From assembly GCF_003018255.1 (NCBI RefSeq), contig NZ_CP027440.1: a stretch of 64,000 nucleotides of DNA, one strand, 5' to 3'. The DNA is from Escherichia coli (lineage in GTDB: Bacteria; Pseudomonadota; Gammaproteobacteria; Enterobacterales; Enterobacteriaceae). Both the position numbers and the translations under genes were made by a program. The notes under the pieces were generated by a model. It was not told the origin of the DNA. It saw only the letters and a list, made by a program, of their open reading frames with translations, and searched no databases. Shown one piece after another: positions 26,990-38,715 of the stretch (the stretch's first letter is position 1; each line of letters opens with the position of its first letter).

Positions 26990-28300
26990 TTATCTGGCCT
27001 TGCTCGCCATAATCTCGATAATCTGCCGATCCGTTTGCTGCATCGAATGGCTTGCTAACGCACACAGGTTGGCAATCGACTGCTCAACATCATGCGCCAC
27101 AATCCCTTCATTACCGGTTACGGCGGTATCATCCAGCGCCATTAACACCGCTTTCCACGCAGCCGAAGCACTGGTCGAAACCTTCATCGCGCAGCTGTTC
27201 GATGCACCATCGCAAATCATGCCACTGACATCGCCGATCATACTGCTGATCGCCATCGAGATGGTTTCATAACGCCCATCCACCAGCCATGCCATCCCGG
27301 CAGCGGCCCCCATTGCTGCGGTCGTTGCGGCACACAGCGCAGACAAACGCGGTAACTGGTTATGGATGTAAATCGCGCTCAAATGCGAAAGCATCAGCGC
27401 ACGCGCCAGCCGTTCATCATCCGCTCCGAAGTGTTCTGCTACCACCACCACGGGCATTGTTGCGGTGATCCCCTGGTTACCCGAGCCGGAGTTACTCATT
27501 GCCGGAAGCGTAGCGCCGCCCATACGCGCATCGGATGCCGCGCTGGTACGAATCACAATGGATGAAGAGAGATCTTTCGCCAGCAAACCGCGCGCGCACT
27601 GTTTTTCCAGCGTCGCACCAATATGCAGCCCCCAGTTACCGCTCAAACCTTCCTGCGATAACGCACAATTTAACTTCGCAGAATCGAGGATAAAGCGGAT
27701 CGCCGCAAACGGGACTTCATTGACGAACTTCAGGATCTCAGCCAGCGTCGTCCTGGAAAGCACCGTCAGCGGCGACTCTTGCTCGCCCTCTGTCACACAC
27801 GCCTGCTGGGTAAACACCACACCATTGTGCGTCTCAATATGCACAATGTTGGTATGCCCGCCGACGATGGTGACACACGCCCACTTCTCACCGTTCCAGA
27901 CTTTGGCGCGTGAGAAGAGGATTTCATCGCAAGGTTCCTGGATCTTAACTGAGACTTTCCCCGCTGCCAGCAGTGCTTTGGCATCGGCAATTGCCTGCGC
28001 AGTTGCGTCTTTCAGCACTTCCAGCCCGGCGTTAGCATTTCCACCTAACGCTCCCAGCGCCGCCGCAATTGGCAGCCCCACCATTCCTGTACCAGGAACG
28101 GTGACACCCAGACCGTTCTTCATCAGATTTGGCGAAACCCAGGCTTCTACACGTTCAACCGGACCTTCCAGTTCAGCCGCAGCAACCGCCGCCGCCAGCG
28201 CCAGTGAAATCGGTTCAGTACACCCCAGCGCCGGTTTTACTTCCTCCTGAACGGCGAGGATGTAACGCTGCCATAACGGATTTAAAGTCGAATCAAACAT
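26990..28300 (-). CDS. cyuA: L-cysteine desulfidase (YhaM/CyuA)
   Basis: 436-aa ORF. Confidence 0.9.
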
Positions 28301-28327
28301 ATTAAAAACCTTAAAATTTCAGGTAAA

Positions 28328-29659
28328 TCAAGAAAATGCCAGGAACGGAGAAACACAAAGCAACAAACCAGTGACGATAATCAGGTACAGAGACATCCCT
28401 TTGTATTTGTGCAATGCCGGTACTTTGTAAACCAGCCACGCCGGGATCAGGCACCCTACCATGCCGAAAATCGGGCTACAGATAGAGGTGAAGCTCAACA
28501 CCGGGGCGTTCAGTACGATGGCGCTCCAGGCCAGCAAAATGGCGAAAATCATGATGCCGCGCTGAACGAGATTTTCGTTAATCTTCTCGGCAGGTATCTT
28601 GCGACGCAGGATGTTCATTACGATCCCTTGCGTTGCTTCGCGAAAGCCTAAATAGACGCCAAAGAATGCAGTCATTACAGCAAAGATATTGAGAATGACG
28701 CTGACCACTTTCACCCACGCTGCGCCATCACCGCTAATAAACTGTGCGGCAATCGCCAGCGCGGAAATATTCTGCTCGTAGGCTTTTACCGCTTCGTCAT
28801 GTCCCATCGCCAGCGTGAACGACACGGCGTAGAAAAAGACGGTGACAAACAAAATGCCAAACGCGATATTCATTGCCCGCAATGCTTTATGCCGCGCCAC
28901 TTCAATTGATTTTTCCCGCGAGCGATAAGAGATCACCATCGGGCTTAACGTCTGGATAAACAGAATCGACGTCAGGGTAAACGGCAGCGTAATAATGGCG
29001 TTTTTCATCAGCAGCCCCAGCGGCGGTAGCGAACCGACGTTATACAGATGCCACATTCCCACCATCGACACGCCCAGCGCCGCGACCACCAGCAGCTTGG
29101 TCAGCACCATGCCGGTCGAAATTTTGAATAACAATTTCTCGCCGCGTGAGGAGATCGCCACCAGAATGCAAATCAGTACCAGACCATAAAAGGGACTGTC
29201 TGACAGCAACCCTTCCGTCACGCCGAAGGTATGCAGGTAGGAAGCACTATCGTTGGTGATGGCGGTGGAATAGACGAACATCCAAATCACCAGCATTACG
29301 AAATAGAGTGCACCTAACAGGATGCCCCAGTTTTTACCTAAATAACCGCTAATGACGCTCGGGTAATCTTTACATTCTGGTGATTCTGCCAGCGTATTAA
29401 TAAACAACCGCTGAAACAGATACATTGCCGGGTAACCAATCACCGATGAGAGCAAAAATACCCACAATCCCATCAAACCGACCTGCACCGGGAGAAAAAC
29501 AATCCCCGCGCCAATCGCCATCCCGATACTCATAATCACCCAGCCGGTGTCAGTACTGTCGAATTTGATCGCTTCTCGCCACTCGCTCTCACTCATTCCA
29601 GCACGACCCGCCGGGGTCGAAGCGTCTGCAATGACGCCTTTATTCGATGCAATTTCCAT
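28328..29659 (-). CDS. cyuP: Serine/cysteine permease (YhaO/CyuP), HAAAP family
   Basis: 443-aa polytopic ORF. Confidence 0.9.
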   Translation of the reverse strand: MEIASNKGVIADASTPAGRAGMSESEWREAIKFDSTDTGWVIMSIGMAIGAGIVFLPVQVGLMGLWVFLLSSVIGYPAMYLFQRLFINTLAESPECKDYPSVISGYLGKNWGILLGALYFVMLVIWMFVYSTAITNDSASYLHTFGVTEGLLSDSPFYGLVLICILVAISSRGEKLLFKISTGMVLTKLLVVAALGVSMVGMWHLYNVGSLPPLGLLMKNAIITLPFTLTSILFIQTLSPMVISYRSREKSIEVARHKALRAMNIAFGILFVTVFFYAVSFTLAMGHDEAVKAYEQNISALAIAAQFISGDGAAWVKVVSVILNIFAVMTAFFGVYLGFREATQGIVMNILRRKIPAEKINENLVQRGIMIFAILLAWSAIVLNAPVLSFTSICSPIFGMVGCLIPAWLVYKVPALHKYKGMSLYLIIVTGLLLCVSPFLAFS

Positions 29660-29883
29660 AATTTCTCGCTCAATATTTTGTAGGGCTTATTATTTTTTTC
29701 CGAGCCGCATCAAGGCGATATGCGGTCTACGTTTTTGCAGGCGAGTTATTAGAATAAAGAAATGATACGCGCGAGGTCAGAGAAAATCTTCACAATCAAG
29801 ACTTTGAAATAACGGAGATGGATAAGAATTTTCTACTAAATTAATCGCAAGAGAATATTCATTCTCTATTTGCGGCAGATCAC

Positions 29884-29910
29884 AAAAAAAAAGGTGCACA
29901 TTTGTGCACC
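29884..29910 (-). terminator. Rho-independent terminator at end of tdc operon
   Basis: Minus-strand ggtgcacaaatgtgcacc hairpin followed by a run of nine T. Confidence 0.75.
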
Positions 29911-36667: not shown

Positions 36668-36688
36668 ATCCTATCCTCAACGAATTAA

Positions 36689-37678
36689 TTAAGCGTCAAC
36701 GAAACCGGTGATTTGAGAGACGCGAGAAAGATCGATATTGCCGCCGGAAATAATACTGACGGTTTTTCTGTTTTGAATATATTGGTCTAATTTACCGCTT
36801 AATAATGCAGCACATGCCAGAGCGCCTGCGCCTTCGGTGACGACTTTATTGCGCTGAATTAAGGCAATCATACTGTTTCTGATTTCATCTTCGCTGACCA
36901 GCACGATGTCATCGACTAATTCACGAACGATTTCGTAAGTTAAATTACCCGGGCGGGAGACATCACAACCATCCGCCAGGGTGCCGGTAGTTCGGTGCGT
37001 GGTTATTTCTCCGGAGTGGAAAGAAGCCGCCATGCCGTGAACGTTTTCAGACTGTACGCCAATAACACGAATGGTCGGGTTAATTGATTTAATCGCTACC
37101 GCAATACCAGCAATTAAACCGCCACCGCCAATTGGCACAATCACATTATCGACATCATAGAGATCTTCCATAATTTCCAGACCAATCGTTCCCTGGCCAG
37201 CAATCACTTTCGGATCATCGTAAGGTGGGATAAAAATACGGCCTTCCATTTCGACAATTTCGCTCACTTTAGCAATAGTGTCGTTGAAGTTATCACCATG
37301 CAAAACGACTTCTGCGGAGTAGTCGCACGTTGCCGCGACTTTGGATTTCGGCGCACCTTTTGGCATCACCACTTTACCGTCAATACCCAGCATCGCACAG
37401 GAGAGCGAAACCCCTTGCGCATGGTTGCCCGCAGAGCAGGCCACTACACCTTTACGTTTTTCCGCATCAGTCAGTGAACTTAATTTATTAAATGCGCCAC
37501 GAATTTTAAATGAACCGGTACGCTGCATGTTTTCGAATTTGAGGAATATTTCACCTTTGCAACGTTCACTAAAATAGTTGGAGCGAGGCATACCTGTTTT
37601 ATAAATTCGCCCAGCCAGTCGTTGTTTTGCTTCAATGATGTCATCAATAGCAACCGGGAGATCGTATGTAATATGCAT
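36689..37678 (-). CDS. tdcB: Catabolic threonine dehydratase (PLP)
   Basis: 329-aa ORF; PLP lysine motif SFKIRGA. Confidence 0.95.
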
Positions 37679-37776
37679 TATAAAACCTCTTAGCCTGAAT
37701 TAAATATGTAGGTAACCGTAACCGACACCTGCAAAACAGACAGGTGGATTATTTATGTTTAAATTAAAACAAATAA

Positions 37777-38715
37777 CTAATCAACTTCAATTAATTGCCT
37801 TCGTCTACACCCATTATAAGATGAATACTCTTTGGCTAATTCCACCAAAACCGATGCTGCTTTTTTAATACGATAATTTTTCGACCATACCGCGGCATAT
37901 TGTGCCACAGGTAATGTTTCTTCAACCGGAATAGTAATAAATTGATTAGAACCAAAAGGTGATGTCATATCACAAGGAATTACAGTTAAGAAATCAGCAT
38001 TGAGAACAAGATTATAAATTGTCACGACTGAGTCGGTTTTAACGATGTTTTCAATACTGATGCCATTTCTTTGTAACGTAGTAAGCAGCTCGCTGTAGTA
38101 CCCCATATTGGTTTGTGGCAACACCCACTGTTCGTTCTTCAACGACTCCAGCGTGGTGGTGCCGGTGCATGTTCGGGACTTACTGGCTACCAGCACAAAC
38201 TCGGACTCGAACAGCGGCTCAACATGTAAATCCTGAAGCTTCATTTCTGCGCTTAACGTACCAATCGCAAAATCCAGTCGACCGTCGCGGATTGCCGGTA
38301 AGAACGAAGACAGTTGCGCTTCATACATAGAAACCTGCGCTTTCGGGAACACCTCTTTGAACTTGTTGATCATCCCGGACATAAAAGTAAAACCAATCAA
38401 TGAAGGAAAACCAAATGAGACTTCCACCACCGCCTCAGAAGACATACCGCTTATCTCATTAACCATATTTTTCATTTCACGGGTAATGGATTCGGAACGG
38501 GAGAGTAACAATTGACCGGCAGGTGTTAATGTTACACCGGTATTTTTCCGCACCACTAACTCCACACCAAAATAATCTTCAATATCGTTAATGATTTTAC
38601 TGACGGCCGGTTGAGTTAACCCTAACTCTTTTGCAGCCGAGCCGATAGAACCACTTCTAATAACTTCCTGAAAGACTACCAGGTGCTGCGTTTTCGGAAG
38701 AAGAATAGTGCTCAT
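37777..38715 (-). CDS. tdcA: LysR-family activator of the tdc operon
   Basis: 312-aa ORF. Confidence 0.9.
   Translation of the reverse strand: MSTILLPKTQHLVVFQEVIRSGSIGSAAKELGLTQPAVSKIINDIEDYFGVELVVRKNTGVTLTPAGQLLLSRSESITREMKNMVNEISGMSSEAVVEVSFGFPSLIGFTFMSGMINKFKEVFPKAQVSMYEAQLSSFLPAIRDGRLDFAIGTLSAEMKLQDLHVEPLFESEFVLVASKSRTCTGTTTLESLKNEQWVLPQTNMGYYSELLTTLQRNGISIENIVKTDSVVTIYNLVLNADFLTVIPCDMTSPFGSNQFITIPVEETLPVAQYAAVWSKNYRIKKAASVLVELAKEYSSYNGCRRRQLIEVD

Follow-up and report, generated by a model that had tools for sequence, protein, structure and literature searches.

The tdcABCDEFG and cyuPA operons of an Escherichia coli genome and the spacer between them

In contig NZ_CP027440.1 of Escherichia coli assembly GCF_003018255.1, the threonine/serine operon tdcABCDEFG is followed on the same strand by the cysteine genes cyuP and cyuA. 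An initial annotation of a 64,000-nucleotide stretch of this contig (hereafter the window, in whose coordinates all positions are given) described these nine genes, at 26990–38715, as one contiguous anaerobic degradation block whose two parts are separated only by a terminator. The locus raises the question whether the two groups of genes are expressed together or as neighbours under separate control, and which elements in the DNA between them could provide such control. The K-12 tdc operon is said to be induced anaerobically and in a catabolite-sensitive manner, and reportedly takes threonine to propionate. We regard it as nearly certain that the block consists of two adjacent, co-directional, and separately controlled catabolic operons, and met no sequence evidence contradicting this reading. 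The arrangement of tdc and cyuPA is already published, and observing it here is correct but ordinary; the coordinates of the spacer bear on two questions raised in the literature, namely whether CRP acts directly at cyuPA and how FnrS activates cyuP (yhaO).

Two operons and the boundary between them

Nine co-directional minus-strand open reading frames (ORFs) from a program-made list, with start codons selected to agree with the K-12 and RefSeq annotation, fill 26990–38715, as initially claimed, and a check of ORFs and translations found no internal stop codon in any of them (cyuA, cyuP, and tdcG to tdcA). The first gene of the tdc operon, tdcA (37777–38715), encodes a LysR-type activator of 312 amino acids (NF007667, 649 bits vs. 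a cut-off of 308) and is followed by tdcB (36689–37678; catabolic threonine/serine dehydratase dependent on pyridoxal phosphate (PLP), 329 amino acids; NF006389, 652 vs. 453 bits), tdcC (35336–36667; threonine/serine:H+ symporter, 443 amino acids; NF010152, 984.8 vs. 645 bits), tdcD (34102–35310; propionate kinase, 402 amino acids; NF009045, 831 vs. 580 bits), tdcE (31774–34068; glycyl-radical 2-ketobutyrate/pyruvate formate-lyase, 764 amino acids; TIGR01255, 1296.6 vs. 994 bits), tdcF (31371–31760; RidA-family enamine/imine deaminase, 129 amino acids; NF008490, 295.7 vs. 222 bits), and tdcG (29935–31299; [4Fe-4S] L-serine dehydratase, 454 amino acids; NF011614, 1054 vs. 873 bits); the spacers within this A-B-C-D-E-F-G series (98, 21, 25, 33, 13, and 71 bp) are the same as in K-12. 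Beyond tdcG lie cyuP (yhaO; 28328–29659), an intact gene for a cysteine importer of the serine/threonine transporter family (443 amino acids), and, after a spacer of 27 bp, cyuA (yhaM; 26990–28300), an intact gene for a [4Fe-4S] L-cysteine desulfidase (436 amino acids) identified by its SDH_alpha domain (Pfam PF03313, E = 1.8e-58) and by the RefSeq annotation of the best match. The small divergent activator gene tdcR (39030–39248, plus strand; 72 amino acids; NF008507, 171.5 vs. 100 bits) is also part of the tdc system and lies just outside the range of the initial annotation, which does hold all nine genes. NCBIfam equivalog cut-offs are exceeded by eight proteins, TdcA to TdcG and TdcR.

Comparison with K-12 MG1655 (b3110–b3119/b4470/b4471) yielded one collinear alignment of 12,645 bp (26962–39606), in which gene order, strand, gene lengths, start codon types, and spacers are alike, as are the terminator hairpin, the CRP site, and the divergent tdcR; the exception is the tdcG–cyuP spacer, which has 275 bp here and 274 bp in K-12, with one extra T in the terminator tail. 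Nucleotide identity is 97.5% over the 12 genes compared and the proteins are 97–100% identical: TdcB and TdcF are the same as in K-12, TdcA has a single change (G312D), TdcG (of equal length) has two and TdcR three, CyuP differs from b3110 at two residues (99.5% identical), and CyuA, equal in length to b4470, differs at 4 of 436 residues (99.1% identical), none of them a cysteine, so that all 10 cysteines are kept. TdcE has only seven amino acid changes despite 94.4% nucleotide identity, and both its RVSGY glycyl-radical motif (at residue 736) and its Cys-Cys pair (423–424) are present. Equivalog scores, the SDH_alpha match, and the K-12 comparison all agree with the gene identities first proposed, and the earlier statement that cyuA is a single intact ORF holds. 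The complete gene set would allow threonine, serine, and cysteine to be fermented and sulfide to be produced from cysteine.

Within the species, a megablast search with 26500–39500 matched 5425 of 5426 complete E. coli genomes (the closest at 99.4% identity), with at least 80% of the 13-kb stretch found in one place in 5349; the annotated features beneath the matches are cyuA, cyuP, and tdcG, F, E, D, C, B, and A. At least 80% of cyuPA is contiguous in 5377 of the 5426 genomes, and 18 have no match to cyuPA. In two genomes ISEc52 interrupts cyuP, which is no longer annotated there as an intact gene, and in one genome IS1 lies within the interval from cyuA to tdcG with cyuP still annotated; these insertions in or beside cyuP are consistent with the low pseudogene rate published for yhaO (3.29%, compared with 0.44% for yhaM, among 1581 genomes; Connolly et al. 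2016, PMC4699771).

The boundary between the two operons carries a predicted intrinsic terminator, whose position (29884–29910, minus strand) the initial annotation had given exactly. An 8-bp stem, GGTGCACA/TGTGCACC, with five GC pairs and a 4-nt loop (29893–29910) is followed by nine Ts (29884–29892; eight in K-12 and in the closest genome), and the element begins 24 nt after the tdcG stop codon. Most genera with a tdc–cyuPA junction also have a GC-rich hairpin and T-run after their final tdc gene, with stems of unrelated sequence (GGGTGCAC, GGGCGCAC, GCCCCGG, AGCTCCG, and AGCCTCC); because hairpin and T-run are kept while the stems are unrelated, it can be argued that termination itself is under selection. 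The claim that the terminator is all that separates the operons did not stand, since it fills just 27 of the 275 spacer bases and approximately 225 bp are taken up by the cyuPA promoter and leader.

To describe this remainder, cyuP upstream regions of 22 species, tdc-linked or not, were aligned; mean column identity was 45%, with sharp conserved blocks. The putative core promoter of cyuPA (29762–29786, minus strand) comprises a −10 box, TATCAT (29762–29767), and the motif TTTTCTC (29780–29786) exactly 19 nt further upstream; T, A, and the final T of the −10 hexamer (TATCAT/TATGAT) and all of TTTTCTC are invariant in the 22 species. In a regular-expression scan of 51 upstream regions (the window plus 50 loci), 48 had the core motif at a distance of 19 nt from a −10-like hexamer, as TTTTCTC in 47 and as TATTCTC in one (Hafnia). 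A recognisable −35 box is absent, which agrees with a promoter that depends on an activator. The position of the conserved −10 box predicts a start of cyuP transcription at the A at 29755; an alternative −10 box, TCTAAT (29748–29753), was dropped, as the invariant T-A-...-T pattern is shown by TATCAT only. The −10 box and upstream blocks are conserved also in species without tdc nearby, and the upstream region appears to travel with cyuPA as a conserved control region of its own.

Further upstream, a distal CRP-like site, TGTGATCTGCCGCAAA (29869–29884, minus strand), abuts the terminator T-run and is centred at about −121.5 from the predicted start. The site has the form TGTGA-N6-TC(A/T)(A/C)A, with two mismatches to the CRP consensus here and one in most other genera; a site with at most two mismatches occurs in 37 of the 51 regions, centred either 109.5–111.5 or 118.5–120.5 nt upstream of the −10 box. 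These two spacings are one helical turn apart with nothing between, a pattern that would fit a phase-dependent activator site at about −121.5 or −131.5. The 275-bp spacer holds two CRP-like matches with at most two mismatches, compared with about 0.11 expected from the mean rate in window-wide shuffles. FNR in place of CRP at the distal site was set aside and stands only as a caveat; judged by eye, the E. coli sequence has 3 of 10 mismatches to TTGAT-N4-ATCAA and a CRP-type GTGA left half. The second, proximal match (29779–29794, two mismatches), centred 19.5 nt upstream of the −10 box or at about −31.5, was rejected as a CRP site; its right half is TTTTCTC, which is kept where the TGTGA half is lost (Hafnia, Proteus, and Buttiauxella). 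The published 23-bp CyuR motif, derived from the cyuR promoter, had no match with three or fewer mismatches anywhere in the window, and its authors likewise note no match at cyuPA (preprint 10.1101/2023.05.16.541025). A perfect 7-bp inverted repeat, AGAGAAT-N4-ATTCTCT (29850–29867), lies between the distal CRP-like site and the core promoter and is a candidate regulator site; its left arm (AGAGAA/TAGAAA) recurs in other genera and its right arm does not.

At the other end of the tdc operon, the tdcA–tdcR intergenic region is AT-rich, as initially reported (31.8% GC vs. 51.4% for the window). The predicted core promoter (38751–38794, minus strand) combines an extended −10 box, TGaTACACT (38751–38759), with the CRP-like site already noted upstream of tdcA, TGTGAGTGGTCGCACA (38779–38794), which has one mismatch to the consensus; the window contains six matches of this quality, compared with 1.65 expected. 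Its centre lies at about −41.5 from the start predicted by the −10 box, which would make it a class II-type site, and eight loci from Enterobacter, Lelliottia, and Pluralibacter have TGTGAGTnnnnGCACA at 69.5–71.5 nt upstream of the ATG of tdcA. A second CRP-like site with one mismatch, TGTGTTGAGGATCACA, is present at 39283–39298, 35 nt past the tdcR stop codon, in a region that in K-12 leads into yhaB.

Published work on the two operons agrees with this layout. Zhou & Imlay 2022 (PMC9040844) place cyuPA directly downstream of tdcABCDEFG and report the neighbours to be transcribed independently, from discrete promoters; cysteine induces cyuPA and has no effect on tdc, whose anaerobic, catabolite-sensitive induction and role in converting threonine to propionate are summarised there. 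In the same study, cyuPA required CyuR and CRP, with direct or indirect action of CRP left open by its authors, CyuA was an oxygen-sensitive [4Fe-4S] cysteine desulfidase, and cyuPA supported anaerobic growth on cysteine. Binding of CyuR upstream of cyuPA has been detected by SELEX (systematic ligand evolution by exponential enrichment) and ChIP-exo (chromatin immunoprecipitation with exonuclease digestion) (PMC11408624). Gene identity, intactness, terminator, CRP-like site, and promoter conservation are observed here, and enzyme activities and regulation are taken from the K-12 literature. On this combined basis, tdcABCDEFG would be transcribed from the CRP-dependent promoter upstream of tdcA with the aid of TdcA and the divergent TdcR; TdcC would import threonine and serine, TdcB (or TdcG for serine) would deaminate them, TdcF would clear the enamine/imine intermediate, the glycyl-radical enzyme TdcE would cleave 2-oxobutyrate or pyruvate to acyl-CoA and formate, and TdcD, with Pta encoded elsewhere, would yield propionate and ATP. 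Transcription of tdc would stop at the hairpin and T9, and cyuPA would start some 130 bp past the terminator from its own activator-dependent promoter, with cysteine-bound CyuR and CRP; CyuP would import cysteine, which the oxygen-sensitive CyuA would convert to pyruvate, ammonium, and sulfide.

The alternative that the two operons form one transcription unit, with read-through of the hairpin from the tdc promoter contributing materially to cyuPA expression, appears unlikely to us. It would be favoured by the common strand, the spacer of only 275 bp, the CRP dependence and anaerobic use of both operons (PMC9040844), and the short hairpin, whose RNA folds at −13.2 (centroid) to −14.4 kcal/mol and is only moderately more stable than shuffled sequences (z = −2.06; 7 of 200 shuffles as stable), so that some read-through into cyuPA is possible. 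The retention of hairpin and T-run after the last tdc gene in most junction genera despite differing stems, the conserved promoter of cyuP, present also where tdc is absent, and the published discrete promoters with cysteine induction of cyuPA alone (PMC9040844) speak against it. Besides this moderate terminator stability, four further points weigh against two separately controlled operons with the functions given above. First, CyuA matched no NCBIfam model and was recognised by Pfam SDH_alpha instead. Second, CyuP scored slightly under the curated cut-off of TIGR00814, the STP subfamily (502.9 vs. 525.8 bits), in an alignment that is full length (1–397 of 397), and had no match in the Pfam search of the proteins. 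Third, function in this strain is judged from the 97–100% protein identity to K-12. Fourth, YhaO has been reported to transport D-serine, and YhaJ to bind at the yhaO promoter (Connolly et al. 2016, PMC4699771).

The junction in other species

Whether the two operons belong together over a wider range was addressed with one genome per species carrying CyuA; the best 80 of 349 matches were taken with 10-kb flanks, and the window proteins were mapped onto them by tblastn. The tdc genes lie immediately upstream of cyuP on the same strand in 34 of the 80 loci, from Escherichia (including E. albertii and two other species), 12 Citrobacter, two Salmonella enterica subspecies, Yokenella, Trabulsiella, Pseudocitrobacter, one Pluralibacter metagenome-assembled genome (MAG), and Enterobacter/Lelliottia; yhaK-yhaJ follows cyuA in nearly all of them. 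Four of these loci, two from Citrobacter and both from Salmonella, have tdcG without tdcF. In the eight Enterobacter/Lelliottia loci and the Pluralibacter MAG, tdcF and tdcG had no tblastn match and tdcE is the last tdc gene, with a tdcE–cyuP gap of 0.27–1.7 kb (mostly approximately 0.82 kb); these loci keep a terminator after tdcE and the cyuP promoter blocks. By comparison, 18 loci have cyuP-cyuA and lack tdc genes over the upstream DNA examined (usually about 8.6 kb); these are from Serratia, Edwardsiella, Hafnia, Buttiauxella, Proteus, Atlantibacter, Superficieibacter, Pluralibacter gergoviae, Mannheimia, Rodentibacter, and one Citrobacter freundii, and Buttiauxella keeps yhaK-yhaJ though tdc is not upstream. 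Klebsiella, Raoultella, and most Pasteurellaceae have cyuA alone, 58–63% identical.

The junction thus appears to characterise a single portion of the Enterobacteriaceae and to have constant flanks, and cyuPA is a module that also occurs independently. Zhou & Imlay speculated that the tdc–cyu block is mobile and spread as one piece among anaerobic bacteria, and adjacency in 34 of 80 loci spanning nine genera, including Escherichia, Citrobacter, Salmonella, and Enterobacter, could be read in that way. We consider this explanation very unlikely: the junction genera all come from a single portion of the Enterobacteriaceae and share the yhaK-yhaJ flank, which fits vertical inheritance, the 18 loci just listed have cyuPA without upstream tdc, the window shows no integrase, insertion sequence (IS) element, or boundary repeat around the block, and plasmids account for only 8 of the 10,901 places matched in E. 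coli genomes. Within the best 80 of 349 matches, the confined junction and its constant flanks lend no support to a joint spread of the two operons other than by vertical inheritance, and the comparison sets a boundary on the published idea that the block "moves as a locus".

A separate observation concerns Citrobacter amalonaticus S646 (locus L064, 887–14570), which is without cyuPA between yhaK and tdcG and has approximately 6.9 kb there instead, including a Klebsiella-type cyuA-like gene (63% identical) that points the opposite way, together with a RidA-like gene; the position beside tdcG thus appears replaceable.

The constant flank also bears on another explanation, in which cyuPA is part of a yhaOMKJ locus for D-serine uptake and sensing under the LysR regulator YhaJ and its adjacency to tdc is incidental. 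Besides the D-serine transport and YhaJ binding cited above, the presence of yhaK-yhaJ after cyuA in nearly every Enterobacteriaceae junction locus and in Buttiauxella agrees with such a locus. On the other side, cyuPA responds to cysteine and not to other amino acids, its enzyme CyuA acts as a cysteine desulfidase, and the operon supports growth on cysteine anaerobically (PMC9040844); YhaM failed to complement a dsdA mutant on D-serine (PMC4699771); and cyuPA has the same promoter blocks without yhaKJ in Serratia, Edwardsiella, Hafnia, and Proteus. We find this explanation doubtful, although the cysteine and D-serine roles of cyuPA are not mutually exclusive, and retain the reading of cyuPA as a separately controlled cysteine operon beside tdc.

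The cyuP leader and FnrS

The predicted start would give cyuP a leader of approximately 96 nt (29660–29755, minus strand), in which several elements are conserved. The AGCGAG of its Shine-Dalgarno (SD) region (29665–29670) is invariant across the aligned species, as are CCTGC (29737–29741), inside the block CUCGCCUGCA (29736–29745; +11 to +20 from the predicted start), and ATCG (29716–29719), in the loop of a hairpin. This hairpin, recognised as an inverted repeat, has arms at 29705–29710 and 29720–29725 and the loop AUCGCCUUG (29711–29719), the AUCGC of which is at +37 to +41. In a 22-sequence alignment of the Escherichia/Citrobacter/Salmonella type, the 8-bp leader stem was paired in 85.8% of cells, compared with 23–45% when the partner was slid; compensatory changes were found in four of the eight pairs, and the covariation score was reached by none of 500 shuffles. 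In leaders from Enterobacter, Yokenella, Pseudocitrobacter, and Proteus, the same loop motif is carried by hairpins whose stems are unrelated. Because the stem register differs between genera, RNAalifold on 43 leaders missed the local hairpin, which was therefore tested on one register class and by single-sequence folding; the RNAalifold run returned only a 4-bp contact of the invariant UCGC with the invariant GCGA of the SD region, a pairing in which, both sides being invariant, no covariation can appear. Among Rfam families, only rnpB (39814–40190, minus strand) reaches its gathering score in the window, and the matches from a permissive scan of the spacer were all terminator-like and below threshold.

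These motifs raise the possibility of pairing with FnrS, an anaerobic small RNA (sRNA). A passage of PMC3349551, citing Boysen 2010 and Durand & Storz 2010, reports FnrS as an activator of yhaO/cyuP, and the link has been invoked for FNR-dependent H2S production and azo-dye reduction (PMC10653809). The K-12 fnrS sequence was scanned against the leader by windowed, accessibility-corrected duplex prediction (ViennaRNA, own script), which replaced full-length RNAduplex, as the latter gave a meaningless end-to-end duplex that 27% of shuffles equalled. The top predicted site pairs FnrS nt 1–9 (GCAGGUGAA) with leader nt 11–20 (CUCGCCUGCA) at a total of −9.55 kcal/mol, matched by 1 of 150 dinucleotide shuffles of the leader and by 2 of 150 shuffles of FnrS nt 1–70. 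At a weaker second site, with −3.04 kcal/mol for the leader of the window, AGCGAUG of the first FnrS hairpin loop (nt 20–26) pairs with AUAUCGCC of the leader loop. When E. coli FnrS stood in for that of each species, 23 of 32 leaders had their top site between the 5′ end and CCUGC, and seven had it between the two loops. Among deviating leaders, that of Buttiauxella has CCUGG and AUCGU, and that of Edwardsiella, which is far longer, keeps CCUGC and gave no predicted site for the 5′ end of FnrS.

Both invariant leader motifs are thus predicted to be complementary to FnrS: pairing of its 5′ end (GCAGGUGA) with the first of them, CUCGCCUGCA, would be joined by a kissing contact between its first hairpin loop (AAGCGAUG) and the AUCGC loop. 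The FnrS loop AAGCGAUG also resembles the cyuP SD region AAGCGAGA, and FnrS could therefore displace the contact between leader loop and SD region and activate cyuP translation. We tentatively propose, as possible rather than probable, that the spacer is a regulatory module travelling with cyuPA, which combines direct action of CRP from the phase-locked site at about −121.5 or −131.5 with docking of FnrS at both leader motifs. If true, this would provide a mechanism for the reported activation of yhaO/cyuP by FnrS and for the FNR dependence of sulfide production; part of the FnrS–yhaO pairing may already be mapped in the literature. For GcvB and RyhB, a literature search gave only a review that names cyuP as a candidate target of RyhB.

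Related systems and differences from K-12

The cyuPA/cdsAB operons of other Enterobacterales, such as cdsAB of Yersinia ruckeri and cyuPA of Salmonella, are likewise two-gene operons of a transporter and a desulfidase. Operons of this type are induced by cysteine via CyuR (PMC9040844; preprint 10.1101/2023.05.16.541025), and Salmonella has an additional aerobic desulfhydrase, CdsH, whereas E. coli is without it (PMC9040844). In Serratia, Hafnia, and Proteus, cyuPA has the same upstream blocks (TTTTCTC, −10 box, CCTGC, and ATCG hairpin) and does not lie beside tdc. The dsdCXA D-serine locus presents an analogous layout of a transporter, a deaminating enzyme, and a nearby LysR regulator (yhaJ here; PMC4699771) but differs in its protein families, DsdA being a PLP enzyme and CyuA an Fe-S desulfidase with SDH_alpha, and yhaM does not substitute for dsdA.

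Among paralogues of the tdc enzymes, TdcE is, like PflB, a glycyl-radical enzyme of the pyruvate formate-lyase type, and a segment of tdcE cross-matches pflB at 75.5% nucleotide identity; TdcD is, like AckA, a kinase of the acetate/propionate family. Unlike pflB and ackA, the genes for TdcE and TdcD are in a threonine operon, and the proteins have their best scores on the TdcE-type and propionate-kinase equivalogs. The K-12 enzymes TdcE and TdcD act on 2-oxobutyrate and propionyl phosphate.

A 1.8-kb part of tdcE (32135–33935) is approximately 7% diverged from the K-12 allele, compared with 1–2% in the flanking genes. Two classes of this allele are found in E. coli, 1064 records being at least 95% identical to the type in the window (including ATCC 25922) and 4329 being 90–95% identical (K-12 type); the divergent stretch has the look of an old import by recombination that is under purifying selection.

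Further differences from K-12 lie at the two ends of the block. The yhaL–cyuA spacer (26931–26989) has 59 bp, compared with 133 bp in K-12 (74 bp shorter). The top two E. coli matches align with the 13,001-base query base for base, and the other 13 among the matches listed span 13,072 bp in two pieces, which implies about 71 extra bp somewhere in the region. Beyond tdcR, yhaB and yhaC of K-12 (approximately 1.9 kb) are absent, with only remnants of 63 bp and 139 bp aligning (39607–39802), and the closest RefSeq genome has partial pseudogenes annotated between tdcR and rnpB. The segment containing the rnpB 3′ end and terminator (39773–39863) is present in a single copy here, whereas K-12 has three additional diverged copies (78–85% identical, approximately 93–103 bp) downstream of rnpB.

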